Part shown: piece by piece, positions 4,055 through 63,600 of the stretch
How positions within the stretch are numbered: position 1 is the stretch's first letter
Layout of the letters: each line of letters opens with the position of its first letter
NCBI GenBank assembly: GCA_020054475.1
Contig: JAHWGJ010000004.1
Coordinates: 5,384 to 69,383 of the forward strand
Reading direction: 5' to 3'
DNA: 64,000 bases
Origin: Thermoplasmata archaeon
Lineage (GTDB): Archaea > Thermoplasmatota > E2 > DHVEG-1
Position numbers and translations under genes: made by a program
The notes under the pieces: generated by a model
Databases searched by the model: none
What the model was told of the DNA's origin: nothing
Seen by the model: only the letters and a program-made list of their open reading frames with translations

Positions 4055-4178
4055 GTTTATGCTCCCCGTTTGATTATTTACAATAATTATAATAGATTCT
4101 TATAATATAAGATTTATTATATATATACAATTATCAATAAAAATATGATACAAATCAACCCTAAAAAAGTTCTTTATT

Positions 4179-8682: not shown

Positions 8683-8960
8683 TAGAACTATCTAATATTA
8701 CTATTGTTGCATCCCTATTTTCCTAAAACAAAACGGAGTATATAAATTTTTTAGTTTTTTTTAATAAATATTTATTAAATATAATATTTTCAATATTAAA
8801 TACTTTGATCCTTAAAGATCTTAAAATTAAAATAAATATTATATTTAAAATTATTATAATAATTATTTTAAAAATTTTGTTAAAATTATATAAAAAATAA
8901 TAAAAAATTTTATTTATAACTTAATCAATTATAAATAAAAGATAAAAATGGAGGTATTAA

Positions 8961-11303: not shown

Positions 11304-11334
11304 TACCTTTATCGAATTATTAAAATAAAAAGGA

Positions 11335-34018: not shown

Positions 34019-34091
34019 AAGTTCAATATATACTGACCAACTCATATGCATTAAATAAAGACATTATGTTAATTTTAAGTGTAGATTATAG

Positions 34092-35096: not shown

Positions 35097-35103
35097 GTAG
35101 AAA

Positions 35104-35985: not shown

Positions 35986-35986
35986 G

Positions 35987-38067: not shown

Positions 38068-39705
38068 ATGAATAAAAAGTTTTGTATATTAGCTATAGGC
38101 ATTTGTTTATCAATGACACTAACGGCTTTTAGTGGATGTGTTGAAGAATCTACAAAAATTGAACTCAAAAATCCTGATACTTTAGTATACTACACTTTTG
38201 GTGATGCAAAAACACTTGATCCGGCTGATGCGTATGATTCAGCTTCTGCAGAAGGAATATTTTCAATTTATGAGGGATTAATAACATATAAGGGTGATGA
38301 TTTAGATACTTTTTATCCATCATTAGCAACAAGCTGGGATGTGTCTGAAGATTCAAAAACATGGACTTTCAATTTGCGAGAAGGAGTTAAATTTTCCAAT
38401 GGTAATGATTTTACTGCAGAGGATGTAAAATATTCATTTGATAGAGTTCTAACTATGAACTCCCCAGAATCCGGTGTTGCTTGGATTTTACAACAAAGTA
38501 TGGATTTAGACAGCACTAAGATAATCGATGATTATACTATTGAAATTAATTTAATTGAACCATATGGTGGATTTTTATCTACTATAGCATATACAGTCGG
38601 TTTTATTGTGGACAAAGATTATGTTGAAGAACATGGCGGCATTGTTGCAGATACTGAAAATGAATATCTTAAATTAAACCCTATTGGAACCGGCCCATAT
38701 ATGGTAGATCATTGGACAAGAAATACCGAGTTAGTTTTAGTTCAAAATCCTGATTATTGGGGTGGCTGGGATGGAAAACATGTTAAAAAAGTTGTAATTA
38801 AATATGCTAACGAAGCAGCAACAAGAATCTTAGCCTTAAAAAATGGTGATGCTGATATAGCAGTAATACCAAATGAGAATCTAGAGGATGTTGAAGATGA
38901 TGAAGGCATTATAGTTATCGCCTATGATAGTTTTGACTTGGTAATGGCAGAAATGAATACTTTATCAGATAATTCAATGTATTTAGCGAATCCTGAGGTG
39001 AGAAGAGCACTTTGTTATGCTTTTAATTATCAATCTGCAATTGATGATGCATATGTTGGATATATGAGTAGGGTAGCTGGAGCAATTCCAAATGGTATGC
39101 CATATTATGATTCACAGAATAATGGAGTTCCAGTATATGATTATGATCTTGAAGAAGCTGAACAGATATTAGATGAAGCAGGATTCACATTAAACGAAGA
39201 TGATCAAAGATTTGATGGGGCAACAATAAGGATATTTTATAACGCTGGAAATACTGAAAGATATAAGATGGCTTTATCATTCCAAGAAGAATTAAATAAG
39301 ATAGGTATTCTTTCTTCAGTAATTGCTGAAAATTGGCCTCAACTATTACATCGAATGTATACAACAGCAGATTGGGATTTAATATTTATTGGATGGGGTC
39401 CAGATTATAATGATCCTGATGACTATGTATTCCCATTTGTTGCATCATCAGATGTTAATGGCGATACTTTTAATACGGGATATAAAAATGAATCAGTTGA
39501 TGAATATCTACTAGAAGGAAAATATTCAGCAGATCCAAATGTTCGTGAGAATGCATACAAAAATGCTTTTGATATTTATATTCAAGATCCATCTATGATT
39601 TACATTGGACAAAGACAGTTCATAAGACCAAAAAGAGATTGGGTTCAAGGATACTATTATAACCCTGTAAGAGATTGGTATTGGTACGACTATTACAAAG
39701 AATAA
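38068..39705 (+). CDS. ABC transporter substrate-binding protein, family 5 (paralog of 32372..34018)
   Basis: Same leader and signal (ILAIGICLSMTLTAFSGCVEE). SBP_bac_5-like blocks. Confidence 0.8.
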   Translation: MNKKFCILAIGICLSMTLTAFSGCVEESTKIELKNPDTLVYYTFGDAKTLDPADAYDSASAEGIFSIYEGLITYKGDDLDTFYPSLATSWDVSEDSKTWTFNLREGVKFSNGNDFTAEDVKYSFDRVLTMNSPESGVAWILQQSMDLDSTKIIDDYTIEINLIEPYGGFLSTIAYTVGFIVDKDYVEEHGGIVADTENEYLKLNPIGTGPYMVDHWTRNTELVLVQNPDYWGGWDGKHVKKVVIKYANEAATRILALKNGDADIAVIPNENLEDVEDDEGIIVIAYDSFDLVMAEMNTLSDNSMYLANPEVRRALCYAFNYQSAIDDAYVGYMSRVAGAIPNGMPYYDSQNNGVPVYDYDLEEAEQILDEAGFTLNEDDQRFDGATIRIFYNAGNTERYKMALSFQEELNKIGILSSVIAENWPQLLHRMYTTADWDLIFIGWGPDYNDPDDYVFPFVASSDVNGDTFNTGYKNESVDEYLLEGKYSADPNVRENAYKNAFDIYIQDPSMIYIGQRQFIRPKRDWVQGYYYNPVRDWYWYDYYKE

Positions 39706-39869
39706 GGATGATAACGTCATCCTTTTCTCTTTCTTATTTATTAAAATTAAATTAATAAATATTGTTTAAAATATTGTATAAATAAAAGGATAAAATATTA
39801 AAATAATATCTACAACGAAATTTAAATTGGAATTAATTCAACATTACTTATAATTTAAATGGAGATAAT

Positions 39870-40892
39870 ATGAAAACATGGGAATACATAGTAAGAAGAT
39901 TGCTATTACTTATCCCTGTTTTGATAGGAGTAACAATTATTACATTTGTAATATCTCATGTTATACCTGCCGATCCAGCTATAGCTTTTGCTGGAGGGCC
40001 AAAAGCTCAACCTGAAACCATAGAAAGAATAAGAGAAGAACTACATTTAAATGAACCGTTATTGGTTCAATATTTCTACTATTTAAATGATTTACTTCAT
40101 TTAAACTTTGGAAAATCATATTTAGAAAGTAGACCAGTCCTTGAAAGTATAACACAATACTTTCCAGCAACTTTTGAATTAACAATTTTTGCTATGCTTA
40201 TTTCTGTACCTTTAGGAATTCTGGGTGGAATTATTTCTGCAATAAGAAGAAATAAACTTTCAGATCATATAACTAGAATAATTGCAATATTAGGTTATTC
40301 AATGCCAATTTTTTGGCTAGCACTTATGCTTCAATACCTATTAGCATATCAATTTCCAATTTTACCTTTAGAGGGAAGACTATCAATAGGTCTTATTGCA
40401 CCACAATCCATTACAGGTTTATATGTGATAGATAGCATTTTAACAGGCAATATAAATACTTTATCTGCATCTTTATATCATCTTATTTTACCTTCTTTCA
40501 CACTTGGTTTTGCTACAATGGCTTTACTTCTAAGGATGACAAGATCAAGTATGCTTGAAGTAATGGGTATGGATTATGTTAGAACTGCTAGAGCAAAAGG
40601 TCTATCAGAAAGAGTAGTAATAATGAAACATGCACTCAGAAATGCTTTAATTCCAACAATAACAGTTTCAGGTCTTCAATTCGGAGCATTACTTGGAGGT
40701 GCGGTTCTTACCGAATCAATTTTTAATTGGCCAGGTATGGGCAGATTTGCCGCAAATGCTGTAATGGGACTTGATTTCAATTCTGTAATGGGCTTTACAA
40801 TTATTGTTGCAATAATTTATGTTATAGCAAATCTAATTGTTGATTTATTATATGCAGTTATCGACCCAAGAGTCAAATTAGGAGGAGAATGA
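39870..40892 (+). CDS. ABC transporter permease (DppB-like paralog)
   Basis: RTARAKGLSERVVIMKHALRNA loop. Confidence 0.85.
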   Translation: MKTWEYIVRRLLLLIPVLIGVTIITFVISHVIPADPAIAFAGGPKAQPETIERIREELHLNEPLLVQYFYYLNDLLHLNFGKSYLESRPVLESITQYFPATFELTIFAMLISVPLGILGGIISAIRRNKLSDHITRIIAILGYSMPIFWLALMLQYLLAYQFPILPLEGRLSIGLIAPQSITGLYVIDSILTGNINTLSASLYHLILPSFTLGFATMALLLRMTRSSMLEVMGMDYVRTARAKGLSERVVIMKHALRNALIPTITVSGLQFGALLGGAVLTESIFNWPGMGRFAANAVMGLDFNSVMGFTIIVAIIYVIANLIVDLLYAVIDPRVKLGGE

Positions 40893-40962
40893 TATATTTA
40901 AGATAAAAAAAATAGATGAATTTCTTAAAAAAAATGAATCAAGAATTAAAGATCTAAAATAT

Positions 40963-41835
40963 ATGCTTCATCTTTTTAGACGAAGTTTATTATCAATGAT
41001 AGGTCTTATTCTTATTCTATTCATCATATTTATTGCAATTTTTGCTCCGTATTTAGCTATACAACATCCAACTTATGTTGAAGTTTCAACCGAACAAGGT
41101 ACAAGACGAATTGAAGAAAGATGGGATATCAATTTTCAAGATAAATTTATTCCACCAAATTCAGAGCACTATTTTGGCACTGATGATTTTGGAAGGGATA
41201 TATATAGCATGGTAATTTATGGAACTCAGATATCATTGAAAATATGTTTAATGGTAGTATTTTCTGCAACAATAATCGGAATTATCTTAGGAGGAATTGC
41301 TGGATATTTCGGCGGTAAAATTGATGAAATACTAATGAGAGTAACAGATGTTTTTTTGTCTATACCTTATCTAATTTTAGCAATAGCTGTAGCAGCTGCA
41401 TTAGGTAGAAGTATAGAAAATATAATGATGGCATTAGTATTAGTTTGGTGGCCTCAATATGCTCGTTTATTAAGAGGACAAGTACTTTCAATCAGAGAAA
41501 ATCAATATGTAGAAGCAGCTCGTAGTATAGGGGCAAATAATTGGAGAATTTTATTCAGACATGTAATTCCAAACTCATTTGCACCATTATTAGTTCAAAT
41601 AACATTAGATTTAGGAGCCGTTTTACTTGTAGCAGCAGGATTAAGTTTCATAGGTCTAGGTGCCCCACCGGGAACTGCTGAATGGGGATTAATGATATCC
41701 TCCGGGAGAATGCATATGTTCCATTCATGGTGGTATGCAACTTTTCCAGGATTGGCAATTGTAATAACTGTTTTAGGTTTTAACTTATTAGGAGATGGAA
41801 TAAGAGACATAACAGATCCAAAATTAAGAAGGTGA
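40963..41835 (+). CDS. ABC transporter permease (DppC-like paralog)
   Basis: EAARSIGANNWRILFRHVIPN loop. Confidence 0.85.
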   Translation: MLHLFRRSLLSMIGLILILFIIFIAIFAPYLAIQHPTYVEVSTEQGTRRIEERWDINFQDKFIPPNSEHYFGTDDFGRDIYSMVIYGTQISLKICLMVVFSATIIGIILGGIAGYFGGKIDEILMRVTDVFLSIPYLILAIAVAAALGRSIENIMMALVLVWWPQYARLLRGQVLSIRENQYVEAARSIGANNWRILFRHVIPNSFAPLLVQITLDLGAVLLVAAGLSFIGLGAPPGTAEWGLMISSGRMHMFHSWWYATFPGLAIVITVLGFNLLGDGIRDITDPKLRR

Positions 41836-41839
41836 TTAA

Positions 41840-42910
41840 ACGAAGGAAAAACCATTAATATCAATAAAAAATCTTAAAACATATTTTTACACCTATGAAG
41901 GAGTAGTTAAAGCATTAGAGGATACAAATTTTGAAATATATAATGGAGAAACCTTTGGATTAATTGGGGAAACAGGATGCGGAAAAAGTGTAACAGCTTT
42001 GTCTGTTATGAGATTAATTCCCGACCCACCTGGAAAAATTATTGATGGTGAAATAAAATTCAAAGATGAAGACTTAATAAAAAAAACTGATTTAGAGTTG
42101 CAAAATATTAGAGGAAATGAAATATCAATGATATTTCAGGAACCCATGACAGCATTAAATCCTGTATTTAAAATCGGAGACCAAATTGCAGAAGTAATCA
42201 TTCTTCATGAATCAAACCCTAAATTAAATAATAAAAATTACAGGTTTTATAATAAAAGAAAAATTAGAAAGAAAATGGAAAAACAAGCATTTGAAAAAGC
42301 AATTGAAGCATTGAAAATGGTAAATATTCCGGATGCAGAAAAAGTTGCAAATCAATATCCACATGAATGTAGTGGAGGAATGCGACAAAGAGCTATGATT
42401 GCAATGATGCTTGCTTGTGATCCAGATCTATTGATTGCTGATGAACCAACAACTGCTCTTGATGTAACAGTTCAGGCACAAATATTAGCTTTAATGAAGG
42501 ACCTTCAAAAACGAAAAGGAACAGCGATCTGGTTAATAACACATAATTTGGGAATAATTGCTGAAATGTGTGATCGAGTAGGAGTAATGTATGCTGGATA
42601 CATTGTTGAAATGGGTTCAACCGAATTAATATTTGATAACCCTGATCATCCATATACAAGAGGATTAATAGGTTCTATACCAAAAATTACAGAAGATATT
42701 GATGAATTAGAGATTATTCCAGGTAATGTCCCTAATTTAATTGAACCACCATCAGGATGTAGATTTCATCCAAGATGTAAATTTTGCAAACAAATTTGTA
42801 AAGAAAAACCACCCGAATTAATTGAAGTTGAAAAAAACCATTATGTTGCTTGCCATAGATATAAAGAAGTAAAATATTCTGAGCTAGTAGATTTTCTAAA
42901 AAAAAAATAG
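41840..42910 (+). CDS. ABC transporter ATP-binding protein (DppD-like paralog). No canonical start codon upstream of the Walker A motif.
   Basis: Open frame from 41840, after TAA at 41837-39. It encodes KPLISIKNLKTYFYTYEGVV...GETGCGKS. The first ATG (41999) lies after the P-loop. Confidence 0.6.
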   Translation, partial: TKEKPLISIKNLKTYFYTYEGVVKALEDTNFEIYNGETFGLIGETGCGKSVTALSVMRLIPDPPGKIIDGEIKFKDEDLIKKTDLELQNIRGNEISMIFQEPMTALNPVFKIGDQIAEVIILHESNPKLNNKNYRFYNKRKIRKKMEKQAFEKAIEALKMVNIPDAEKVANQYPHECSGGMRQRAMIAMMLACDPDLLIADEPTTALDVTVQAQILALMKDLQKRKGTAIWLITHNLGIIAEMCDRVGVMYAGYIVEMGSTELIFDNPDHPYTRGLIGSIPKITEDIDELEIIPGNVPNLIEPPSGCRFHPRCKFCKQICKEKPPELIEVEKNHYVACHRYKEVKYSELVDFLKKK

Positions 42911-42920
42911 TGGTAAAAAG

Positions 42921-43901
42921 ATGGAAAAAGATCAAATAATTAAAGCAAAAAACATCAAAGAATACTTTCCAATAAGAAAAGGTATATTTTCAACTGTAAA
43001 AGAGTATGTTAAAGCAGTTGATAATGTAAATTTTTATATAAAAAAAGGAGAAACTTTTGGTCTTGTAGGAGAGTCAGGATGCGGGAAAACAACATTGGGT
43101 AGGACTTTAATACAATTAATTCCACCGACTTCTGGAACTGTTTGTTTTATGGGTAAAAATCTTTCAGAAATATCAAAATCAGAATTAAGAAAACTAAGAT
43201 TACACATGCAAATTGTTTTCCAAGACCCGTCATCCTCGTTAAACCCAAGAATGACAGTTAAACAAATTATAGGTGAACCACTAAAAATAAATAAAAAAAT
43301 CAAAAATGAAGAAATAAATAAAAAAGTATTATTATTATTAAAAACAGTTGGATTAGATGAACAACACATGTATCGTTTTCCGCATGAATTTAGTGGAGGA
43401 CAAAAACAAAGAATAGGTGTTGCAAGAGCTCTTGCTTTAAATCCAGATTTTATAGTATTAGATGAACCAACATCAGCTTTAGATGTATCTGTTCAAGCAA
43501 AAATACTAAATCTGTTTAAAGATTTACAAAAAAAATTCAATTTAACATATTTATTTATAACTCATGATTTAAGTGTTATAAAATACATAAGCGATAGAGT
43601 AGCAGTAATGTATGCTGGTAAAATAGTCGAATTATCAACCACAAAAGAATTATTTAAAAAACAACTTCATCCATATTCAATTGCTCTACTATGTTGTATA
43701 CCTATTCCAGATCCGAAAATAAAAAAAGAATTTATTGTAATAAAAGGTGAAGTACCTAGCCTAATTAATCCTCCGCCAGGTTGTAAATTTCATCCAAGAT
43801 GTCCCAAAAGAATTTCAATATGTAAAAAAATTGAACCTGAATTAATTGAAATAAAAAAAGAACATTTTGTAGCATGTCACTTATATCAAAAAAAAGTATG
43901 A
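42921..43901 (+). CDS. ABC transporter ATP-binding protein (DppF-like paralog)
   Basis: GESGCGKT, FSGGQKQR, FIVLDEPTSALD. Confidence 0.85.
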   Translation: MEKDQIIKAKNIKEYFPIRKGIFSTVKEYVKAVDNVNFYIKKGETFGLVGESGCGKTTLGRTLIQLIPPTSGTVCFMGKNLSEISKSELRKLRLHMQIVFQDPSSSLNPRMTVKQIIGEPLKINKKIKNEEINKKVLLLLKTVGLDEQHMYRFPHEFSGGQKQRIGVARALALNPDFIVLDEPTSALDVSVQAKILNLFKDLQKKFNLTYLFITHDLSVIKYISDRVAVMYAGKIVELSTTKELFKKQLHPYSIALLCCIPIPDPKIKKEFIVIKGEVPSLINPPPGCKFHPRCPKRISICKKIEPELIEIKKEHFVACHLYQKKV

Positions 43902-45411: not shown

Positions 45412-46680
45412 TCAAATATTATCCATTTTTTTTAATTTTGAAAATATGATGTCTCTAATAAGTTCATTACATTCTATATTAATATTTATATCATCACCAT
45501 AAGAAATTTCAAATACATTTGCTTTATCATAAATCCAGTTTATTAACGTTTGAGTTTTTTTATTATTTGCTAATTTAATATTAAATTTTACTATATTAGG
45601 TAAAGAACTATAAATTCCATCCAATAATTTAGTAATATTTATTTTTTTATTAACTGATATAGGAATAATTTTCCTATCTTTTGATAACTCATTATTATTC
45701 AAAAAATCGATTTTATTTTTAAGATTTTTACTAGATATTAAATCAATTTTATTTAATATAATTAAAATTGATGATTTAACGCCAATTTCAATTAATTCAT
45801 TGTAAGATGTTTTTAATTTTTTTTTAAAAATTTCAAAATCATCACTAACATCAACAACTAATAAAACAATATCTGATACTTCAATTTCTTCTAAAGTTGA
45901 GTGAAAAGCATTAATCATCCATGCAGGAAGCTTTTCAATAAAACCGACAGTGTCCGTAATTAAAATTGGAATATTATTATTTTCAATTTTTCGGATTGTG
46001 GTTGATAAAGTTGAAAATAATTTTTCTTCAACTTTAATTTTTTCGTTTGATAAAAGATTCAGAATGCTACTTTTTCCTGCATTTGTATATCCTGCTAAAG
46101 ATAATAAATAATAACCACTAAAATGTCTATTTTTTCTAAGTATTTTTCTTTTAATTTCAATTTTATTTAAATTTTTTTTAATTTTTTTAATTTGTTTTTT
46201 TATCATTTCAAAATAATCATCAACTTGATATTCACCACCCGCCATAAAACCCGGATGCTCTCCACTTCTTGCTCGATGGATGAGTTCCTTAACAAATGGT
46301 TTTTCATACTGAAGCTCAGCTAATCTTACTTGTAATTTAGCTTCTTTTTTATCTGCTCGTTCTTTAAAAATTTCTAATATTAATCTAATACGGTCATAAA
46401 CATTAACATTTAATTTTTTTTCAAGATTAAACCACTGAGATGGTTTTAATTTTCCATCGATAACAATTAAATCAATAATTTCATTACTATTATTAATAAA
46501 ATTTTTAATTTCTTCAAGTTTACCTTGACCTATATAACTATTTACATCAGGTTTTTTTCTATTTTGAATAAAAGTTTTATACACCTCATATCCAAGTGTA
46601 TTTGTTAATTGCTCAATTTCAAGCATATCATCAATTATAGAAATAATAATTGCTTTTCTTTTTTCATTATATATAACCAT
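45412..46680 (-). CDS. hflX: GTPase HflX
   Basis: HflX N-terminal domain, then G1 GYTNAGKSS, G3 DTVGF, G4 NKID. Confidence 0.8.
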   Translation of the reverse strand: MVIYNEKRKAIIISIIDDMLEIEQLTNTLGYEVYKTFIQNRKKPDVNSYIGQGKLEEIKNFINNSNEIIDLIVIDGKLKPSQWFNLEKKLNVNVYDRIRLILEIFKERADKKEAKLQVRLAELQYEKPFVKELIHRARSGEHPGFMAGGEYQVDDYFEMIKKQIKKIKKNLNKIEIKRKILRKNRHFSGYYLLSLAGYTNAGKSSILNLLSNEKIKVEEKLFSTLSTTIRKIENNNIPILITDTVGFIEKLPAWMINAFHSTLEEIEVSDIVLLVVDVSDDFEIFKKKLKTSYNELIEIGVKSSILIILNKIDLISSKNLKNKIDFLNNNELSKDRKIIPISVNKKINITKLLDGIYSSLPNIVKFNIKLANNKKTQTLINWIYDKANVFEISYGDDININIECNELIRDIIFSKLKKMDNI

Positions 46681-46789: not shown

Positions 46790-48124
46790 ATGGAAGATGA
46801 TCTAAATATATTGGGGGTTATACCTTCAGATAGAAAAAAATTAGAAAACATGGGAATTACAAAAATTCCACAAATAGCAATGATGTCTGTTAATTCTCTT
46901 GGGATGGGAAATAGTAAAGGGAACATGCTCATACAAAGAGCTAGAAATATAATTGCAAATGATAATATCGCGGATATTGATATTATAGATGATGATCATA
47001 TTACTGTTAAAGTAAAAAGAATAGATAGAGCAATTATAAAATCAGTATTAAACGCATTAGATATTTATTCCGCTAAATGGGGAAATGCTGCATTAAAAAC
47101 TGAAGGGAATATCTTAAAAATTTCAAGAAATTCTCAAGCCTTTGATAAAATTATATCAAAAGCAAAAACATTATCAGAAATTATTGAAATTAAAAAAATT
47201 GAAGAAAGAGAAAAAATTGGAATATATTTACCAGATGAAGAACTAATTGAATTTGCAAAAAAAAGAGGTTTTAAAGGTTTTTGGAAAAACGTTTTTCAAG
47301 AAATTCATGGTAATGACATAATGAAAAAGGTAATTTCATCAAGCATGTTCTCGACTTTTAGGGATCCAATTCACTCATTAATAATAGGCGAGCCAGGTAG
47401 CAGCAAAACAATGGCAAAGGAAATAATAAGTGAACAATTTGATGATATAACTAATATTGGTGCAAACACTACTAGATCTGGTTTAGTCTGTAACTTAGGA
47501 ACTGGCGATTTAGGGGCCTTATCACACTCAAATAATAAATTAGTATTAGTTGATGAATTTGATAAAATTCCAGAAGAAGATATTGAATATTGCTATGAAT
47601 TATTATCTAATGGGAAGTGTAGTGTTCATTCTGCTAAAATTCATCAAAATATTGAAAGTGAATTTATTATGATAGCTTTTGCAAATCCAAAATCAAAAGT
47701 ATTCCGTAAAAACGCAATTTTAGATATAGGGTTATCGCCTTTATTAGTTAGTAGATGCGCATTAATTGTTAGAGTAAAAAATATATCAAAAAGCGACAGA
47801 CTAAACTTATTTGAAAAAAAATTTTATGGTGCTGGAGAAATTGAAGAAAAACATGAATATTATAATCAATGGATGCGATTATCTAGAACGTATAATCCAG
47901 AAATAATAGCATCTGAAAAAATAGTAAAAAAATATATAAATAATATGAGTGAAATTGTTGAAAAATATTATTCAACAAACCTCCGAAGAGATCTAAGAAT
48001 GGCGGACTATATAAGAAGAATACCATTATCAATTGCTCGTTCATCTTTTTCATCTGTAAATAATGATATAATTGAAGAAGCAGGAAATATTATTGAAGAT
48101 TCAATTAATACATGGAACGAATAA
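46790..48124 (+). CDS. Mini-MCM: MCM-type AAA+ ATPase core with an N-terminal helix-hairpin-helix region. Lacks the MCM N-terminal zinc/OB domains.
   Basis: Walker A IIGEPGSSKT, Walker B LVDEFDKI, sensor-1 IAFANPKSK, Arg-finger-like LLVSRCALIV, and a lid R-rich helix RRDLRMADYIRRIPLSIARS. N-terminus LGVIPSDRKKLENMGITKIPQIAMMS is HhH-like. Confidence 0.6.
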   Translation: MEDDLNILGVIPSDRKKLENMGITKIPQIAMMSVNSLGMGNSKGNMLIQRARNIIANDNIADIDIIDDDHITVKVKRIDRAIIKSVLNALDIYSAKWGNAALKTEGNILKISRNSQAFDKIISKAKTLSEIIEIKKIEEREKIGIYLPDEELIEFAKKRGFKGFWKNVFQEIHGNDIMKKVISSSMFSTFRDPIHSLIIGEPGSSKTMAKEIISEQFDDITNIGANTTRSGLVCNLGTGDLGALSHSNNKLVLVDEFDKIPEEDIEYCYELLSNGKCSVHSAKIHQNIESEFIMIAFANPKSKVFRKNAILDIGLSPLLVSRCALIVRVKNISKSDRLNLFEKKFYGAGEIEEKHEYYNQWMRLSRTYNPEIIASEKIVKKYINNMSEIVEKYYSTNLRRDLRMADYIRRIPLSIARSSFSSVNNDIIEEAGNIIEDSINTWNE

Positions 48125-48324
48125 AAATAATACTAATTTATCTTGTTAAATAAGTTAATTAATGGTGTGATAAATTATAAATATAACCTATTGAATATTA
48201 TATATTGTAACAGCGGGGGGTAATAAATAGAAGCAATTATTGTGAAATAAAATGAATTTTTTATTATTTATGCTCCTATTTTATTATTTGTATTATTTCC
48301 ATATTACATACCTCCGTTTAAGAC

Positions 48325-48356
48325 GGAAGTGGGGAAAATTAATTTTTCCCACTCCT
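48325..48356. other. Imperfect ~15-bp hairpin GGAAGTGGGGAAAATT / AATTTTTCCCACTCC
   Basis: Seen in sequence about 200 nt downstream of the mini-MCM stop. Confidence 0.3.
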
Positions 48357-48649
48357 TTCTAAATATTCGCATATAAAAAAAAAATGAATAAATCTAATAT
48401 CAAAGATAATAAACCAACAATCAAATAAGTAATATCTATAAACTATCCTTCTAACTACAAAAATATAAAAATCAATTTCTTGAAAACATAACTTAAAAAA
48501 TATAATTGGGGAGATAAAAAATAATTTCAATATTTTGGGAGGTAAACATGAAAAAATTTTTCCTCTTATACTTTGCTTAGAATTCTGATTACATAATAAC
48601 TCAATAAAATTACTTCTCACAATTTAATTTGAATAAAAAATCTGAGAAT

Positions 48650-49700
48650 TATAAATAAATGATGAATCAAAAAATTAAACTATCTTCCTATAACCATTTT
48701 TCCTAAGATTCCTCTGTCTTTCATGTAATTCTTGATATCTTCTATCTTTATGTCTTAAAAAATTATTCAACAAATTAAAACCCCCTAATATAATAATACA
48801 ACCTTAAACCTAAAAACTACCTAATAGATTCTCATAATAACTCTTTATAACATTGTAACGAGCTAATTCCAACTGTTTTTTCAATAAACCGTTTTTCAAC
48901 ATTATAATATATAAGAGCCTCATACTATAACTAATTTACGTAAATTGTCGTAATATATATACGTTTATTAACGTAATTTTACAATAATGAAAAAAAAATA
49001 GAATCAGGAGAGAGAAAAACCTTCCCTCCAAAAACTACCTTTTTTACCTCCGAAAAAACTAAATAAAACAAAAAACTAACAGAAAAATCTACTAAATAAT
49101 TCTCATACTATAGTAATATCACTGTAGCCGTTAGCCGTCTTAATTTCAACTGTTTTTTTGATAATCTTCCATGTCTACGCATAAAATAACATATGCTGCA
49201 CCTAGTATAACTAATTGCCGATATAAAATTCGATATATGACGAATTTTAATAAATATTCTTTTTAATACTAATTATTTGACAATAAAATACAACAATAAA
49301 AATTTATCAAAATCAGAAATATATTTCTTAAAATTCTCATAAACATAACGCAACAACAACTAATTAGCTAAATTAACCGTTTCATACTACTCTTAAATAT
49401 CAATATTTTAAATAAATCTATCATAATAATCATTCATTACAACATTTATATAATAATCTAAAGCTACCTTATTACGCCTTTTAAAATTGCCTTCTATCTT
49501 ATCATAATAAAAAATTCTAAAATTTTTTCGAATTAAACAAGGAATGGATTCAAGTGAACTATTATCTAAAAACCTTCAAAAACCTCAACCTAATTCATTA
49601 TTTCAACCATTTCTATTATTTTGAAATAAATAACAAAATATTTATTCCAATCAAATATTAAAGATAAGAATATATAAAACTTACAAACTCAATAAAATAT
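48650..49700. repeat. G-depleted (+ strand) non-coding block with at least two degenerate ~170-bp direct repeat units (about 48800-48965 and 49085-49260) and a possible third partial unit near 49330
   Basis: Shared strings include ttctcata-taa, ttccaactgtttttt / tttcaactgttttttt, and actataactaatttacg / agtataactaattgccg. No ORF larger than the 48339..48620 artefact. Confidence 0.45.
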
Positions 49701-49732
49701 TGTGAGTCTAAAACTATAATGTTGGTGAAATA

Positions 49733-49924
49733 GTGAGAGATGGTGCAAATTACATTAAACAATTTGAATCTGAGGAAATTAAAAAAATTATTAATCTTAT
49801 ATATGATAGTAAACCAGAAAAAATTGAATTCAGTGATTCAATAAAACAAAAACACTTGGAAGTAATTAATTATGTAGATTCACTTGAAAAACCAAAGATT
49901 AGTTTTTGGAAGAAAAAAAGATAA
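49733..49924 (+). CDS. Small hypothetical protein
   Basis: ORF only. Confidence 0.2.
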   Translation: MRDGANYIKQFESEEIKKIINLIYDSKPEKIEFSDSIKQKHLEVINYVDSLEKPKISFWKKKR

Positions 49925-50109
49925 TTTCACATTAATTTTAATAATTTATTTTCATTTATAATTATTACAAAGATTTAAATACTCAATTATCAAATACATG
50001 ATTAGAAATCTAAAATTAATTTTGTAAATTAAATACATAATAATTATTTTATTATATACAATAAATCTTCTAAAATATTAGATTATTTATTAAGATTTAG
50101 GAATAAATT

Positions 50110-50457
50110 ATGAAATATGATGAATTATTAAATAAAAAAAAGGAATTAAAAAAAATTATTATTAATTCAAATTTTAACAATAAAAATGAAAAATATTATG
50201 AAGGATTCAAAAAAGGAGTATTAGAATCCGTTAATTTATTTAATTCTACAATTGCTTTTTATAAACAATATAAAGATGACGTTAAATTATTGATGAAGGA
50301 GCAAAATAAACTTTGGCTTAAATGGGTTGACTATTATAATGGTCAAACAAGTATAGATAATTCAAATTATAAAAATCGATACAATAAATGGCTTTTTGAT
50401 AATATTTTTTCAAATATAAAAACAGAAGAAAATGAGGAATTATTAGAATTATTTTAA
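50110..50457 (+). CDS. Small hypothetical protein
   Basis: ORF only. K/N-rich helical. Confidence 0.25.
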   Translation: MKYDELLNKKKELKKIIINSNFNNKNEKYYEGFKKGVLESVNLFNSTIAFYKQYKDDVKLLMKEQNKLWLKWVDYYNGQTSIDNSNYKNRYNKWLFDNIFSNIKTEENEELLELF

Positions 50458-50462
50458 AATAT

Positions 50463-50732
50463 TTATTTTGTTATTTGATTTGAATTATTGTGGTTTCTTA
50501 TTTCATCAAAATATCTGCGGCAACTTCTTTTAATTTGAGCAAGTTGTTGTTGGGGAATTTTATAGGATTGTTGAGTTAATTCAAGGGCAAATATTAAACC
50601 ATGTACGAATGCTCCAGGATTATAATTTTTCTCATTACTAAGCTTAAATATTTCATCAGTTATTTTCATTGCATCTTCAATAGTATATGAAGTTTCAATT
50701 TTCTTGTCATCCTCTTTAGATATTTCAGTCAT
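50463..50732 (-). CDS. Small hypothetical protein
   Basis: ORF only. Confidence 0.25.
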   Translation of the reverse strand: MTEISKEDDKKIETSYTIEDAMKITDEIFKLSNEKNYNPGAFVHGLIFALELTQQSYKIPQQQLAQIKRSCRRYFDEIRNHNNSNQITK

Positions 50733-50855
50733 AAAATTACATTCAAACTTAGCTATAAATAAATTTGTTTTATAGGATATTATTTAAATTTATACTGTTT
50801 TTTCTTAATGTTTATAAACTATAAATGTATTCTTTTATGTAGTGCGTGATAATAT

Positions 50856-51059
50856 ATGAATGAAGAAGATAAAAAAGAATTTTTAGAAGATTTTCGAAAA
50901 GCAAATGGAGATGCAAAACTTGATATGTGGTATTACGCACTTGAACAAGAAGTTTTATGGGAATCAATATTAGCAGATATGTCAGAAATTGCAAAAGAAC
51001 AAAAAATGGATAAAAAATTAGACGACATGATGAAAGAAGATATTAAAAAAATTTCATAA
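50856..51059 (+). CDS. Small acidic hypothetical protein
   Basis: ORF only. Confidence 0.2.
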   Translation: MNEEDKKEFLEDFRKANGDAKLDMWYYALEQEVLWESILADMSEIAKEQKMDKKLDDMMKEDIKKIS

Positions 51060-51451
51060 TACTTTAAAATATTTTTCTTCTAGATTATAATAATAAATTT
51101 TTGTTTTATAGCATAAATATTAGTATATTTAATTGTTAGATATTAACAATAATTCTTTATTAAATGGAGGTAATAATTTGGATAAAATTGAAATAATAAG
51201 AAGAGCAGAGAATGCTATTTTATGGTTAGAAAATGCTGAGCGAGCTGTAGTTGATGCTAAGGAAGATATAATCAAATTAATTGAAGAGGCGAAAAAATAA
51301 TATTTTTTTTTCAATTAAGATTTGACATGACATTTAATACAAACATTATGTTTTATATCAAAACAATTTCTACAAACTAACGTCCCGCATAATATACAAG
51401 TAAACAATACACTAGGTTTTCCACAAATATTACATAAACCAGAAATTTCCA

Positions 51452-52195
51452 TTATTTTTCACCAATTATAATTAATTTTTTAGTTAAATCATCTAAAGGA
51501 AGATCAGTAGTAACAAGAGGGATATCTTCCCTTTCAGCTAATTTAACAGCAAGTTGGTCAACAGCTCCGGGTTTATGATATACTACTATTGTAGGTTTAA
51601 CTGGATGCACCCGAACAGCAATCATGGGACTTCGTCCATATCGTATGCCCGTAAATATTAGCGCTCTTTCAGGGGACCAACCATAGAGATTTGCATAATC
51701 AATTGGGGTAATATTTTCAATTATTTTAATACTATCAACAAGAGTAAAACCCTTTACTTTTTTCTTGAAGCCAATTTTTCCAGAAGTTAAAATATTCCCA
51801 TTTATATTATTAATAAAATTTTCTACTGTAACTGCATATGGATATTCCATAATTTCAATAATTCCATCATGTGTCGTAACCATTGAATCATATTGATGTA
51901 TTATTTTTCCTCCAAGGTTTTCATCGATTTTAATAAACCCTTCGATTATTTTTTTAACAGTTTGAATTCCCGGAGATTTTCTTCTACCTGATTCATAGTC
52001 ACTTATTACGCTAGGTGATAAATTTAAATAAGAAGCAAGCTCGGTTTGACTTATTCCAAAAATATTCCTCCATTTTCTAATAGTTTTTCCGGGTTTAGGG
52101 CTAAGAGTTATTTCGCCAGCAATTTTTTCTGATAAAATATCTTTTACATCCATCTTATTTCTCCATAGGTTTAAATTTATATCCATAATGTTCAA
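51452..52195 (-). CDS. XRE-family HTH transcriptional regulator with a C-terminal uncharacterised domain
   Basis: ISQTELASYLNLSPSVISDYESGRR is an HTH_3-type helix-turn-helix. Divergent from the integrase gene. Confidence 0.5.
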   Translation of the reverse strand: MNIMDINLNLWRNKMDVKDILSEKIAGEITLSPKPGKTIRKWRNIFGISQTELASYLNLSPSVISDYESGRRKSPGIQTVKKIIEGFIKIDENLGGKIIHQYDSMVTTHDGIIEIMEYPYAVTVENFINNINGNILTSGKIGFKKKVKGFTLVDSIKIIENITPIDYANLYGWSPERALIFTGIRYGRSPMIAVRVHPVKPTIVVYHKPGAVDQLAVKLAEREDIPLVTTDLPLDDLTKKLIIIGEK

Positions 52196-52238
52196 AGTGG
52201 GAATATATTAATATAATACTTTTTCTATAACATATATT

Positions 52239-53633
52239 GTGGTTCATATGGTTACTACTCCTTATGATGTCGATAGATATATCGTCAATATGTTAAATAA
52301 TTTTCGTAATAAATCGCATAAAAAAGATGCTGAAGAATACCTATTTATTAGAGAAAGAATAGACAAAGTAAACAACTATACTAGACGAAATGATGTACAA
52401 GCTCTTTTATCCCTTGATTTTTTCCTAAAAGGTAAATCCTACGAAAAAGCAACACAAGATGATATACTTGCCTTTGAACAATATCTGGAAAAAGAATATG
52501 TAAGTCCTGGTAAAAAAGAAAGATACGAAAAAACAATAAAAGCAGGGAATGAAGCAATAAGACCAAAGGTTGGCCTTGACTCTGGATCAGTAGAACAATA
52601 TGAAGCACATATCAAAAGATTCTATAAATATCTATCAAATAAAAATGAATATAAGAAAGGGAAAAGATTTCAGAAAAATATTCCTTATCCGAATAGTGTT
52701 TCATGGATTTCTGCAAGTTCTCAAAATAGTAAAGAATTTCCAATTGACAAACTATTGAAAGAAGAAGAACTTCTTAAACTCCTAAATATGTGTGATAATA
52801 CAAGGGATAAAGCCATGATCTCTGCTGGATTTTATGATGCAGGATTGAGGATAGGGGAATTAATTTCATTAAATATACGAAGCGTAGGTTTTGATAAATT
52901 AGGTGGATATTTTATTTTGCCAAAAAAGGGAGAAAATCTTAAAACAGGCGTGAGGCGAATTAGATTATTTATTATGCCAAGTTCAACTAAATATCTCAAG
53001 GATTTTATTAATAATCATCCATTCAAAAAATATGAGGATGCACCATTATTTTTCACCCAGAATTATTCAACATTTAATAAGATAATCAATAAAATTAATA
53101 ATAATACTTTTAAAAAGGATGATTTTGAGGAAGTAAGACTATCAAGACCAGGCATTGAAAACAAGATTAAAAAATATTGTAATCTTGCAGGAATCTCAGT
53201 TCTTACCCCGCATCAATTAAGACATAATTCTGCAACTCTTTCTTGTAAAGCAGGATTTAATGAAGCACAAATGAGGTTGCGATATGGATGGAGTAAAACA
53301 TCAAAGATGCCGAGTAGATATACTCATCTTGTATCTGCTGATCTTGATGAAAAAATAAAACAGATTACTGGTTTTAAAGAACCTGATAAACCATTGAAGA
53401 GTAAACTTGAGAGTATAATCTGTTGGAATTGTAATGATGAGAATGTACCGACTAATAAGTTCTGTTCAATGTGTGGGAGCAATCTTAATCCCAAAAAAGA
53501 AGAAATTACTCCAACTGCTGCAGAAACTGGAATTGCATTACAAAAAAGCATGAATCAAGATGAAATGTATCAACTAATGTTTAAGAAATTACAGGATATG
53601 GAAAAAGAACTTAAAAAGCTAAAAAATAAATAA
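52239..53633 (+). CDS. Tyrosine recombinase / phage-type integrase with a C-terminal zinc-ribbon tail
   Basis: Catalytic-box residues: LRIGELISL (Arg), HQLRHNSATL (HxxR), SKMPSRYTHL (Tyr). C-terminal CWNC...CSMCG. Confidence 0.7.
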   Translation: MVHMVTTPYDVDRYIVNMLNNFRNKSHKKDAEEYLFIRERIDKVNNYTRRNDVQALLSLDFFLKGKSYEKATQDDILAFEQYLEKEYVSPGKKERYEKTIKAGNEAIRPKVGLDSGSVEQYEAHIKRFYKYLSNKNEYKKGKRFQKNIPYPNSVSWISASSQNSKEFPIDKLLKEEELLKLLNMCDNTRDKAMISAGFYDAGLRIGELISLNIRSVGFDKLGGYFILPKKGENLKTGVRRIRLFIMPSSTKYLKDFINNHPFKKYEDAPLFFTQNYSTFNKIINKINNNTFKKDDFEEVRLSRPGIENKIKKYCNLAGISVLTPHQLRHNSATLSCKAGFNEAQMRLRYGWSKTSKMPSRYTHLVSADLDEKIKQITGFKEPDKPLKSKLESIICWNCNDENVPTNKFCSMCGSNLNPKKEEITPTAAETGIALQKSMNQDEMYQLMFKKLQDMEKELKKLKNK

Positions 53634-56440: not shown

Positions 56441-56773
56441 ATGGAAAATAATTATAAAATAGGTTTAATTTTGATTGTTGTTGGCTATATATCTATTATA
56501 TCTGCATTAATTATTTCGTATGCTAGTTTTTTATCTATCCGTGATTATTCAAATTATGATTTATTTAATAATTTACATACTATATTCTTATTTGTTTTTA
56601 TAGCTGGATTAATATTAATTCCAATAGGACTTATTTTACAATCTTTAAAAATTAAAATTAAGAAATTCTCTAAAAAACCAGTTGAAATGGCAAGAAAAAT
56701 ACTATATGAAAGATATGCTAAAGGAGAGATTTCTAAGAAAGAATTTCAAGATATGAAAAAAGATTTAGAATGA
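56441..56773 (+). CDS. Two-TM membrane protein with C-terminal SHOCT domain
   Basis: C-terminus ILYERYAKGEISKKEFQDMKKDLE matches the SHOCT consensus (L..RYA.GEI..EE....K). Confidence 0.5.
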   Translation: MENNYKIGLILIVVGYISIISALIISYASFLSIRDYSNYDLFNNLHTIFLFVFIAGLILIPIGLILQSLKIKIKKFSKKPVEMARKILYERYAKGEISKKEFQDMKKDLE

Positions 56774-56796
56774 TATGTTGAAAAGAAGTAGAACTA

Positions 56797-57090
56797 ATGA
56801 AAAATAATTACATTACTGTTGGAGTGACTATTATTCAAGTATGTGGTGTATTAGCAGTTGTATTCTATGCTTTGTTGTTTGAATCAATATTAACTTATGC
56901 TATGATTCTAGGTGTGATTATAGGTATTATTATATTGATTATTGGAAAAACAGAAAGTGAGAAAGAAGTTATTAAGAGTAATCCATCAAAACAAGATAAT
57001 AAAGCATTACAAATCTTAAAAGAGAGATATGCAAAAGGTGAGATAACAAAGAGAGAATTTAAGGATATGAAGAAGGATGTAGAGGGATAG
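56797..57090 (+). CDS. Two-TM membrane protein with C-terminal SHOCT domain (paralog)
   Basis: ILKERYAKGEITKREFKDMKKDVEG. Confidence 0.5.
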   Translation: MKNNYITVGVTIIQVCGVLAVVFYALLFESILTYAMILGVIIGIIILIIGKTESEKEVIKSNPSKQDNKALQILKERYAKGEITKREFKDMKKDVEG

Positions 57091-57093
57091 AAT

Positions 57094-57513
57094 ATGGGTT
57101 TAATGAAATATTTAGGTGGTATTGGACTTTACTTGTTAGGTGGATTTTTAATATTTATTGGTATAGTATCTTCAATTGTTGCTATTGAAATGTGTGCAAT
57201 TTTAGTTGTTGTTGGTATTATTATTTTATTATCAGGTGTTTTTTATACAAGAACTTCAACTTATGACGTTCCAAGACATATAAAAATTGTAAATAAGAAA
57301 AAGAAAAGAGATGATGATATAAGATGCACAAATTGTGGAAGAGTAATACCTATAGATGCTAAAATTTGTCCATATTGTAGTAAGAAATTAATTGAGGATG
57401 TTAAAGAAATAAATGATAGCAACTCTCCAATTGAAATTTTAAAGAATAGATTTGCAAAGGGTGAACTTACTGAAGAAGAGTATGAAAGAATGAAGAAGAA
57501 ATTAGAAGGATAG
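57094..57513 (+). CDS. Two-TM membrane protein with internal zinc ribbon and C-terminal SHOCT domain (paralog)
   Basis: CTNCGRV...CPYCSKK, then ILKNRFAKGELTEEEYERMKKKLEG. Confidence 0.5.
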   Translation: MGLMKYLGGIGLYLLGGFLIFIGIVSSIVAIEMCAILVVVGIIILLSGVFYTRTSTYDVPRHIKIVNKKKKRDDDIRCTNCGRVIPIDAKICPYCSKKLIEDVKEINDSNSPIEILKNRFAKGELTEEEYERMKKKLEG

Positions 57514-58620: not shown

Positions 58621-58712
58621 AAATCCCCCCTGTTGAAAAATAGTGTTATAATGCCTTAAAACCTGTTTTTCTCATGTTACACCCATGTTTTATAGGAGAA
58701 ACAACCTTATAA
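58621..58712 (+). repeat. Conserved intergenic element type A, copy 1 (AAATCCCCCCTGTTGAAAAATAGTGTTATAATGCC ... hairpin ... AGGAGAAACAACCTTA)
   Basis: Seen in sequence. Four copies share a TGTTATAATGC box, a T-run, and a CTCCTGTTAC...AGGAGAAA hairpin. Confidence 0.55.
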
Positions 58713-60029: not shown

Positions 60030-60128
60030 TTTTCCCTCCTTTTGGAATTAGTGTTATAATACCTTAAAACCTGTTTTATCTCCTGTTACACCCCCATCTA
60101 CCAAGGAGAAACAACCTTTTAAAGCAAA
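60030..60128 (+). repeat. Conserved intergenic element type A, copy 2
   Basis: tttttccctccttttggaattagtgttataataccttaaaacctgttttatctcctgttacacccccatctaccaaggagaaacaaccttttaaagcaa. Confidence 0.55.
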
Positions 60129-61448: not shown

Positions 61449-61545
61449 TTTCCCTTATGTTGGAAATTGTGTTATAATGCTTTAAAAGGTACTTTTTACT
61501 CCTGTTAACCCCTAGGTCTATAGGAGAAATAATACTTTTAATTAC
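61447..61545 (+). repeat. Conserved intergenic element type A, copy 3
   Basis: aatttcccttatgttggaaattgtgttataatgctttaaaaggtactttttactcctgttaacccctaggtctataggagaaataatacttttaattac. Confidence 0.55.
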
Positions 61546-61589: not shown

Positions 61590-61778
61590 ATGAAATCTAG
61601 AGAAACCTGTATTAAATGTGGTCGTAACAAATCATCTGATAATGTGTCTTTGTTTTGTGTATCATGTAAAAACAAGATCATCAACTATTGTTGGAATTAT
61701 CAAAATAAACTACAAGATAGTTATTTAAATCGTAAGAGTCCCACAACAGGTCCAATTTTTTTTAAATTATCATCCTGA
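61590..61778 (+). CDS. Small zinc-ribbon protein
   Basis: CIKCGRNK...CVSCKNK. The 3' end overlaps the convergent eRF1-like gene. Confidence 0.3.
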   Translation: MKSRETCIKCGRNKSSDNVSLFCVSCKNKIINYCWNYQNKLQDSYLNRKSPTTGPIFFKLSS

Positions 61779-62788
61779 CTAAATTCAACAATCGCATCAG
61801 TTCGTTCCGCGATTTTAACGATCTCTTCGACAATATCAACTTCGGATGTTTTCTTTCCACAGGCCGGACAGATAGATAAGATACCTTCTTCAATGAGTTG
61901 ACAGCGTTCGCAAATCCAACCTTTTTGTTTAACATCTTTTTCTACAAGCAATGCCTCCACTTGTCCATTTTTCACTGCTGTTAATGTATTTTTAAGACCA
62001 TATACTGCCAATCCGTTTTTCAAAATCTCAATTCGAATCAGTTCAAGTAACCGTTGATGTTCCTGTTTACCTTTTTCTTTCATTATTTCATGTGTTTCAT
62101 TGAACAATCCATATTCATCATCCATATCAACATTCACTTCTGCAATTACGCCTTTTTGAAGCATTATTGGTAACATGTCACGAAAGTGTTTCTTCGTTTC
62201 CCCTGGGCCTGCAAGAAGAATGTTATCTCGTGCAATTTTTTGAAGAGCCTCAACAATTTCTGTTAAAAAGGTATGTATATTTCCTTTTCTTAATCGTTGG
62301 AATCGTGCTTGGGACATACCACCTTTTTTATGCTTATTCATAATATCTGCAGAGAGATCTTTTTCGGTATTTAGTTCTCCGCAGGAAAAAGAAAATATTT
62401 TTGCATGATTAGAATTCAGCAACACAAGAGTATAAACCTGCCATTCATCAGCTAACTCAGCTATCTGATGAATATAAGGAGATACGTCAACAACAAGAGA
62501 ATTTTTTACGTTCACGGGAAATGTGATAGCCTTGAAAAAATTATTTTTATCAGATGCAAAAATTGCGTGATTTGATCCCTTGTTTTTCTTCAAATATGTC
62601 TTTATCTCATTGATTGTTTTTAAGAAATTTTTTAATTCATCATATTTTAAAATGTGTTGAATCACTTTTTCTCTGTGTTGAATAAAATGTTCATCTTTTC
62701 CATCAAAATATAGACTAACAAATGTTTTCAAATTATCTTTATCATAAATTTCAATAAGTCCAGGTAATGATTTATCACATGTCTTCAT
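61721..62788 (-). CDS. eRF1/aRF1-like release-factor paralog: divergent N-domain, GGQ loop replaced by [16 protein letters not shown], C-domain with a CxxC-x12-CxxC zinc ribbon
   Basis: Central and C-terminal blocks align by eye to eRF1. [29 protein letters not shown] matches [43 protein letters not shown] matches [32 protein letters not shown] matches [29 protein letters not shown] matches GIGGILRYRVDF. No NIKS or YxCxxxF motif in the N-domain. Confidence 0.55.
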   Translation of the reverse strand: [355 protein letters not shown]

Positions 62789-63209
62789 AAGAAAAAAATA
62801 TAAACATATTCTATTTAAAACATTTCTAATTATCTAATGGGAACTGATGAAAAATATAGGTTGTGTTTATAGTAGGGAGGAAAAGAGGGGGCAAAAACCC
62901 AAAAAGCACCTCAAAACTTATCTTCAAGACAGGTTTTAAATATGAAAACTTGTGAAACATTTTAATTCCGAGATAAATCAATATTTTACCAGTAAACTGG
63001 TGTTCAAATCCCTTCCCCTGCATAATTTTTTAAAAAATAATTGGATATATATACTGATTTACTCAAAACTAGATTACTATTAAAATTGAGAGAAATATCC
63101 CCCTAGATTAAATTATATAAAACTCGGCAAAAACGTTATTATAATAAATAAAATTTATAATCTCTTGTAATATACAAATATTGGGGGATGTATTAGGAGG
63201 GAATAAAGA

Positions 63210-63503: not shown

Positions 63504-63600
63504 AAATCCCCCCTGTTGAAAATACTGTTATAATGCTTTAAAACCCTTTTTTTCTCCTGTTACCCTCTATTTACTAAGGAGAAATACTACTTTAAAGCAA
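63504..63600 (+). repeat. Conserved intergenic element type A, copy 4 (perfect 8-bp stem TTTCTCCT / AGGAGAAA)
   Basis: gaaatcccccctgttgaaaatactgttataatgctttaaaaccctttttttctcctgttaccctctatttactaaggagaaatactactttaaagcaa. Confidence 0.55.

Follow-up and report, generated by a model that had tools for sequence, protein, structure and literature searches.

Burroughs and Aravind defined the baeRF-1 families of release factor homologs and picked out family 10, in which a Gln remains conserved, as potentially hydrolytic (2019, PMC6514570), an invariant GG and an invariant Gln in a loop of constrained length being their signature of active peptidyl hydrolases (PMC6514570). The same study reported a GGxSQ motif in aVLRF-1 and acVLRF-1, found that the loop reaching the peptidyl transferase center (PTC) is not conserved in Pelota, and counted among the standard features of aeRF-1 a zinc ribbon set into the Pelota domain, which persists as a two-strand remnant in many bacterial families (PMC6514570). 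A second relative, Balon, is an A-site hibernation factor without NIKS and GGQ, and is distinguished by an HP motif (an N-terminal insertion contacting the decoding center), a lasso loop, a bL27 trap, and an EF-Tu-binding β-hairpin (Helena-Bueno et al. 2024, PMC10901736); bL27 is absent from archaeal ribosomes (PMC10901736). Lastly, Madru et al. (2026, Nat Commun, PMC13324472) searched archaea with a Balon hidden Markov model and reported a "potential archaeal Balon" lineage, every genome of which also carries aeRF1. Here, we analyzed a gene that belongs among these systems. It lies at 61721–62788 on the minus strand of a 64-kb stretch of DNA from a Thermoplasmata archaeon (the whole stretch is referred to as the window) and encodes a protein of 355 amino acids.

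The open reading frame (ORF) is complete, with an ATG start and a stop codon at 61721–61723, and its product is unambiguously a three-domain eRF1-superfamily protein homologous to the class-I archaeo-eukaryotic release factors. The top Pfam model was baeRF_family10 (PF18854), which scored 67.8 bits over residues 104–224 against a gathering cutoff of 27.1. Also above their gathering cutoffs were eRF1_2 (56.3 bits), acVLRF1 (33.6 bits), and eRF1_3 (30.8 bits, residues 249–355); the domain 1 model, eRF1_1, reaches 99.9 bits on the Pelota of homolog locus L026 but did not match the window protein. The best NCBIfam match was aRF1_eRF1 (TIGR03676; E = 1.5e-29, 103.1 bits, below the equivalog cutoff of 234.7), and Pelota/Dom34 (TIGR00111) reached 24.9 bits against a cutoff of 177.65. 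The aRF1 model covers residues 101–340 only, whereas the Balon-type NCBIfam models run from residue 41 or 68 to 353 and thus take in part of the N-terminal domain. Sequence matches in the PDB were to Halobacterium salinarum aRF1 (4af1, 8.5e-11), to the Balon Msmeg1130 (2.4e-7), and to Pelota (6.8e-5). An AlphaFold2 model made from a 25-sequence alignment (predicted local distance difference test, pLDDT, 76; predicted template modeling score 0.45) has three domains, with the zinc-ribbon region confident at pLDDT 88–92. In fold comparisons, the top match of this model was followed by Rv2629 at 16.9, Psychrobacter urativorans Balon at 15.7, aRF1 8hku at 15.4, and ribosome-bound eRF1 8ipa at 15.0 (284 residues aligned), and Vms1 scored only 7.2. 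By this prediction, the nearest solved structure is ribosome-bound Balon. A preliminary description, made from the sequence alone, had called the protein a divergent aRF1/eRF1 paralog on the strength of four blocks (the GGQ-loop helix, LAG-GE, GL..TL.A...G.VE.LLV, and a C-terminal G.LR) and had named profile searches and structure prediction as checks. All four blocks were found, the last three as LAGPGE, GLAVYG..TL.A..NGQVE.LLV, and GLLRFK, and both checks bore the assignment out, with eRF1-domain matches above Pfam cutoffs, all three domains present, and Balon, aRF1, and eRF1 among the top fold matches.

All features of the gene are on the minus strand. The N-terminal domain (approximately residues 1–105; 62474–62788) has a compact eRF1-N-like fold and ends in VDxSPYI[R/H]P. 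The middle domain (approximately residues 106–228; 62105–62473) is RNase-H-like and PTC-reaching and carries the loop G156-G157-M158-S159-Q160 (62288–62332). The C-terminal domain (Pelota/eRF1_3, L7Ae-like; approximately residues 249–355; 61724–62044) is, in aRF1, Pelota, and Balon, the binder of an EF1α/EF-Tu-type GTPase, and here it contains a C4 zinc ribbon formed by C293, C296, C307, and C310 (61850–61921), which is seen in the translation, in the alignment to aRF1, and in the pLDDT of the predicted model.

The translated loop aligns without gaps to the GGQ loop of aRF1, KGGQSAQRFARLR (K-GGQ-SAQRFARLR), which places Met158 at the position of the catalytic Gln, as the GGQ-to-GGMSQ replacement in the preliminary description had it. 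The SQ that follows GGM corresponds to SA or SQ after GGQ in ordinary aRF1. This +2 position is free in canonical aRF1/eRF1, for instance Ala in H. salinarum and Gln in 8hku aRF1, whereas it is fixed as Gln in the family. Across 316 distinct family sequences, we found G156 in 313, G157 in 312, S159 in 305, and Q160 in 299, followed by R162 (302), F/Y163 (304), R165 (308), and R167 (277). The classical Gln site at position 158 holds Trp in 179 sequences, Met in 95, Cys in 23, Gln in 7, and Phe in 6. The four zinc-ribbon Cys are each present in 304–313 sequences, so that the two Gly, S159, Q160, R162, R165, and the four Cys each occur in about 95% of the family or more (lowest 299). GG-M-SQ is therefore not a local quirk but one variant of a family-wide GG[W/M/C]SQ, and GG-[W/M/C]-S-Q-x-R-[F/Y]-x-R together with the C4 zinc ribbon forms the family hallmark. 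Judged from the aligned sequences, true release factors are constrained in the opposite way.

The motifs that read stop codons are gone. The N-terminal domain of the window protein contains neither NIKS nor YxCxxxF, as had been noted; the tip of its helical hairpin, where NIKS would lie (residues 48–52), is variable across the 316 sequences, and the family motif VDxSPYI[R/H]P stands in place of the YxCxxxF region, with P104 in 312 of 316. A few members from metagenomes (P0137, P0138, and P0224) retain GGQSQ with the same NIKS-less N-terminal domain and the zinc ribbon. This suggests descent of the family from a GGQSQ-type aRF1, and these members may possibly be still-active intermediates.

The zinc ribbon had been described as a CxxC-x12-CxxC knuckle pair inserted in the C-terminal domain. 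The knuckles are there, with a spacing of 10 rather than 12 residues (C293-x2-C296-x10-C307-x2-C310), and the ribbon is not an insertion peculiar to this protein, since a Cys/His knuckle occupies the corresponding position of H. salinarum aRF1 (4af1) and the ribbon is standard in aeRF-1 (PMC6514570). For both reasons, we take the ribbon to be ancestral. Msmeg1130 has no Cys at the zinc-ribbon positions and has lost the ribbon.

We then asked how far the family extends. A word-indexed search returned 470 relatives. The best 120 of these are 49–97% identical to the window protein and nearly all 353–375 amino acids long, the exceptions being a few fragments and one protein of 474 amino acids, and the named sequences among them are Thermoplasmata metagenome-assembled genomes (MAGs). 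When 1.84 billion cluster representatives were searched exhaustively with a profile, 4,964 matched at E ≤ 1e-3 and, at the stricter E ≤ 1e-30, 382; the family comprises at least 382 representatives of clusters at 50% identity. Apart from fragments, these are about 360–380 amino acids long and match nearly the whole profile. A scan of species-representative genomes yielded 242 loci, the best 80 of which carry Thermoplasmatota, Theionarchaea, Archaeoglobaceae, Methanophagales/ANME-1, Methanosarcinales, and Halobacteriota labels. The family also occurs in many bacteria, for instance WOR-3, and for 10 distant members, bacterial ones included, Pfam baeRF_family10 was always the best model, at up to 120 bits. 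In a rough neighbor-joining tree, which is too crude to polarize the archaeal against the bacterial members, labeled sequences cluster largely by taxon label and the aRF1 and Pelota outgroups fall outside the family. The family gene is present in duplicate in two MAGs (L008 and L037 in JBFEOQ01; L038 and L057 in CAZFFN01). The JBFEOQ01 copies share 85% (GGM) and 51% (GGW) identity with the window protein, which suggests that the GGM clade of the window may be a paralog of the GGW clade.

The family is already catalogued, as Pfam PF18854 and, in archaea, as "potential Balon" (PMC13324472), and the window protein is a further member. With baeRF-1 family 10 it shares the three-domain aeRF-1 architecture, the retained zinc ribbon, a fixed-length loop in which a Gln is conserved, and a following helix with conserved Arg residues. 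Family 10 has been described as a bacterial clade, whereas the window protein and hundreds of its relatives are archaeal, and archaeal members score lower on PF18854 (68 bits vs 110–120 for bacterial members). The "potential archaeal Balon" lineage is found in Thermoplasmatota, Methanosarcinia, and Syntropharchaeia/ANME-1, has neither NIKS nor GGQ, and is distinct from both aeRF1 and Pelota (PMC13324472). Our family is almost certainly this lineage, matched by taxa and motif loss rather than by accession; the published account gives distribution data only, and the analysis of GGxSQ and zinc-ribbon motifs is not in that paper. Balon sensu stricto (P. urativorans; Mycobacterium smegmatis Msmeg1130; Mycobacterium tuberculosis Rv2629) has the same three-domain aeRF1-like fold without NIKS and GGQ, at a sequence identity of 12–18% to the window protein. 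The PFIHPL of Msmeg1130, which may or may not be the HP motif, aligns with the family's SPYI[R/H][P/Q]L (H107-Q108 here). With classical aRF1/eRF1, the protein has in common the sequence blocks of the middle and C-terminal domains, the RFxRxR helix, a loop of equal length, and a zinc ribbon at the same position; it differs in lacking NIKS, YxCxxxF, and Gln at the GGQ site and in its shorter N-terminal domain of about 105 residues. The Vms1-like clade (aVLRF-1, acVLRF-1, and Vms1/ANKZF1) has the same GGxSQ/GxuQ loop motif, but its architectures are unlike that of the window protein, aVLRF-1 having a long N-terminal coiled coil and no C-terminal Pelota domain and acVLRF-1 having no N-terminal domain. 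The N-terminal domain is not of the Pelota/Dom34 type either. Because the PTC loop and the zinc ribbon differ from those of Balon, we file the protein under baeRF family 10/"potential archaeal Balon" and not under Balon proper.

The gene is a chromosomal, lineage-conserved paralog of the archaeal class-I release factor, and for its product we consider the best explanation, with about an even chance of being correct, to be that it binds the A site independently of stop codons to hibernate or protect ribosomes. The protein keeps the tRNA-mimicking architecture of aRF1, the basic helix after the PTC-contacting loop, and the GTPase-facing C-terminal domain with its ribbon; gone are the Gln at the classical catalytic site and both motifs for reading stop codons. 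On this hypothesis, the protein would enter the ribosomal A site whatever codon is present, with aEF1α as a probable escort or stabilizer, and would bring its GG-x-SQ loop to or into the PTC. There, the site at which release factors hold their water-coordinating Gln would be taken by a bulky hydrophobic residue, which is Met in the window protein and Trp in most members. The decoding and catalytic centers of idle ribosomes would thus be occupied and shielded without peptide release, a Balon-like hibernation from which subunit splitting, for example by ABCE1, could return the ribosome to translation. The protein appears to replace neither Pelota nor the termination factor, since three loci (L022, L023, and L026, two of them labeled Archaeoglobaceae) encode Pelota 3 kb upstream of the family gene and aeRF1 is found in all genomes of the lineage (PMC13324472). 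We take the co-occurrence with aRF1 from the literature, as no canonical aRF1 was found in the 1.25 Mb of homolog loci. The preliminary description had suggested a function in conflict or in ribosome rescue; a role tied to the state of the ribosome (rescue or hibernation) remains sensible, while the conflict and toxin part fell away with the genomic evidence given below.

Several observations weigh against hibernation. The lasso loop and bL27 trap of Balon have no counterpart in the window protein, whose loop is of aRF1 length, residue for residue, with no extra loop, and where Balon has a β-hairpin in place of the zinc ribbon, the C4 ribbon is intact here. The three NCBIfam "ribosome hibernation factor" (Balon-type) models scored 65.5, 54.6, and 38.2 bits against cutoffs of 480, 330, and 320, respectively. 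Ten further family members also missed these equivalog cutoffs, and none of them reached the aRF1 cutoff either. An invariant GG and Gln in a loop of fixed length, with G157-x-S159-Q160 fitting the Vms1-type GxuQ, is moreover what an active hydrolase might keep. Finally, a conserved stress or hibernation operon was not found in the archaeal loci, and the literature that we searched contains no experiment on any GGxSQ member. Counted for hibernation are the purifying selection on the gene and the nearby ABCE1 genes, both described below, and the setting of one bacterial member with GGWSQ. In L090 (region 6741–11576), this member lies between a tandem universal-stress-protein (USP) gene and genes for a GAF-GAF-HisKA_3 kinase and a GerE-type response regulator, an arrangement that we take to resemble a DosS/DosR-type two-component locus. 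The other three bacterial GGWSQ loci examined were uninformative, and HPF/RaiA neighbors were found in none of the four.

The same loop permits a second reading, less probable but a serious rival: the protein could be a stop-codon-independent peptidyl-tRNA hydrolase in which Gln160, shifted from the classical site, is catalytic and which releases peptides from stalled archaeal ribosomes in the manner of ArfB or Vms1, perhaps with a handover to ABCE1. The conservation of G156, G157, S159, and Q160 (299–313 of 316) in a loop that aligns with aRF1 without gaps argues for it, as does a +2 position that is fixed here and free in canonical factors. Burroughs and Aravind's designation of family 10 as a possible hydrolase and their GGxSQ motif in aVLRF-1/acVLRF-1 (PMC6514570) point the same way, together with the acVLRF1 match above its cutoff, the few members that still have GGQSQ, and ABCE1 genes adjoining the family gene in two separate lineages. 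However, the classical Gln site holds bulky hydrophobic rather than small residues, Pelota and aRF1 already coexist with the family protein, and the retained N- and C-terminal domains imply binding in a whole 70S A site, unlike the 50S context of Vms1. In its fullest form, this proposal would make the family an active release factor with its Gln shifted by two residues, combining stop-codon-free release on archaeal and bacterial ribosomes with aEF1α/EF-Tu delivery and ABCE1 coupling, and would make the ribbon-keeping archaeal members the active ancestors of inactive bacterial Balon. We regard that combination as rather unlikely; if true, the ribbon-keeping archaeal members would be the mechanistic link to the Vms1-type GxuQ loop.

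A third and unlikely reading is that of a non-catalytic rescue adaptor, in effect a second, specialized Pelota, that senses stalled or vacant A sites and recruits ABCE1 for splitting. In its favor are a three-domain tRNA-mimic architecture without a catalytic Gln, like that of Pelota/Dom34, and some recurring gene neighbors. Within one Thermoplasmatales clade, about 19 loci have a divergent ABCE1 gene 1.5–6 kb upstream, and an ABCE1 gene (Fer4_RLI and two ABC domains) is directly upstream on the same strand in L081 (1539–3104; labeled Halobacteria) and L082 (7857–9728; labeled Methanophagales). In three Thermoplasmata MAG loci (L083, L085, and L087; about 3977–7415), a gene for an HflX-type GTPase, 50–52% identical to the HflX of the window, lies 2.4 kb downstream of the family gene. 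Because the Thermoplasmatales linkage is divergent, 1.5–6 kb long, and confined to a single clade, it may be plain synteny. The adaptor is further disfavored by the low Pelota score and the missing eRF1_1 match, by the true Pelota that coexists in the same loci, and by the PTC loop, which is conserved in the family and not in Pelota.

The survey of homolog neighborhoods that the preliminary description had called for revealed no conserved partner: among 1,300 clustered ORFs from 88 loci, there is no universal neighbor or operon partner. Recurring neighbors are limited to clades, such as AlaDH/saccharopine dehydrogenase genes and small ORFs, and the others that recur are ABCE1 (two lineages), Pelota (one), and HflX (one). 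In the window, the HflX-type GTPase gene (45412–46680, minus strand) adjoins a block with an MCM-type helicase (46790–48124), a helix-turn-helix (HTH) regulator (51452–52195, minus strand), and a tyrosine integrase that carries a zinc ribbon at its C-terminus (52239–53633), and this block and many small zinc-ribbon and SHOCT membrane ORFs set HflX apart from the release-factor-like gene. The block at 46790–53633 looks like an integrated element with no tRNA gene near it; we found no convincing att-like direct repeats around the gene or the block at 46.8–61.7 kb. Should the block be an insertion, HflX and the family gene may once have been neighbors in the window too.

That a mobile element carries the gene for use in conflict, whether as a toxin that targets translation or as a rescue factor in counter-defense, had been the preliminary description's suggestion, based partly on a position next to an integrase. 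The integrase is in fact 8 kb away, and we judge the idea very improbable. It draws on the block of small zinc-ribbon and membrane ORFs that the gene adjoins, on the helicase, HTH regulator, and integrase 8–15 kb off, and on the copy in L007 (75% identical), which adjoins toxin-antitoxin and helicase genes. It also draws on flanks that differ wholly even from those of the 97%-identical copy in L006, where DNA similarity with the window (blastn) is confined to 61703–62996, that is, to the gene and about 200 nucleotides upstream, and both flanks are different. On the other side, no relative was found in 50,697 phage records (tblastn), in IMG/VR viral contigs, or on plasmids, there was no PADLOC match to a defense system, and no att repeats bracket the gene. 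Homologs at 82, 75, 57, and 51% identity lie amid metabolic and housekeeping genes that differ by clade, and since neighborhoods differ among lineages, the island context is incidental. The rough tree groups the labeled sequences largely by taxon label, and the gene is under strong purifying selection, with a ratio of nonsynonymous to synonymous substitution rates of 0.07–0.14 against the copies in L001, L007, L009, and L011 (73–83% nucleotide identity). The integrase/MCM block appears to be an unrelated insertion beside the gene. The plasmid search returned only canonical aRF-1 genes of 358 amino acids on haloarchaeal megaplasmids, at L088 1018–2094 (Haloferax mediterranei pHM100) and L089 811–1887; these paralogs have NIKS, YxCxxxF, and GGQ intact and no zinc ribbon in the C-terminal domain, and a gene for a PemK/MazF toxin is found about 1 kb away from the pHM100 paralog.

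Least probable of all is that the gene is the drifted sole housekeeping aRF1 of the organism, as its best NCBIfam match to aRF1_eRF1 and the label "peptide chain release factor subunit 1" that JGI pipelines give to homologs would have it, given that 103 bits is far under the 234.7 equivalog cutoff, the stop-codon-recognition motifs are gone, the distribution is patchy (242 loci in the species-genome collection), some MAGs hold two copies (L008 and L037; L038 and L057), and aeRF1 is present in every genome of the lineage (PMC13324472). This agrees with the earlier view that it is not the housekeeping factor, and both the housekeeping and the mobile-toxin readings are close to excluded. We also considered a second aRF1 related to pyrrolysine or recoding and rejected it, since the N-terminal domain is without codon-reading motifs and the family is widespread in bacteria as well.

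The surroundings of the gene hold several further features. The window has a G+C content of about 27.5% (the gene, 32.7%), and no tRNA, rRNA, or Rfam matches were found across it. The region conserved upstream of the gene in its closest relative (62789–62996, minus strand; blastn against L006) contains a TATA-like box, TTTAAATA, about 30 nucleotides before the ATG; the two together suggest that the gene is probably transcribed from a promoter of its own. An intergenic element of about 100 nucleotides occurs in four direct copies that are 65–82% identical (58625–58704, 60033–60123, 61451–61532, and 63507–63587), with the pattern TCCC.CCTGTTG..GTTATAATGC.TTAAAACC...CTCCTGTTAC. Each copy begins just past a small plus-strand ORF, two copies bracket the region of the release-factor-like gene, and the element has no Rfam match; it could represent shared terminator or promoter modules or a small mobile repeat. 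At 56441–57513, three tandem small membrane proteins end in SHOCT, the third also with a zinc ribbon, and several tiny CxxC..CxxC ORFs surround them. Farther away, tandem paralogous Opp-type peptide ABC transporter operons occupy 32372–37936 and 38068–43901, each with a binding protein, two permeases, and two ATPases, and with 27–58% identity between matching genes.

Whether these proteins hibernate or hydrolyze is a question that belongs to the family, the window locus itself being ordinary. The two papers that bear on it differ, with family 10 a possible hydrolase for Burroughs and Aravind (2019) and the archaeal lineage a potential hibernation factor for Madru et al. (2026). Archaeal ribosome hibernation and rescue are only now being clarified, and the family is the one archaeal candidate homologous to both the termination factor and bacterial Balon. 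Its pattern, in which the catalytic Gln has given way to Trp, Met, or Cys while the GG and a Gln two residues on are invariant and the zinc ribbon is kept, provides a testable handle on that question.

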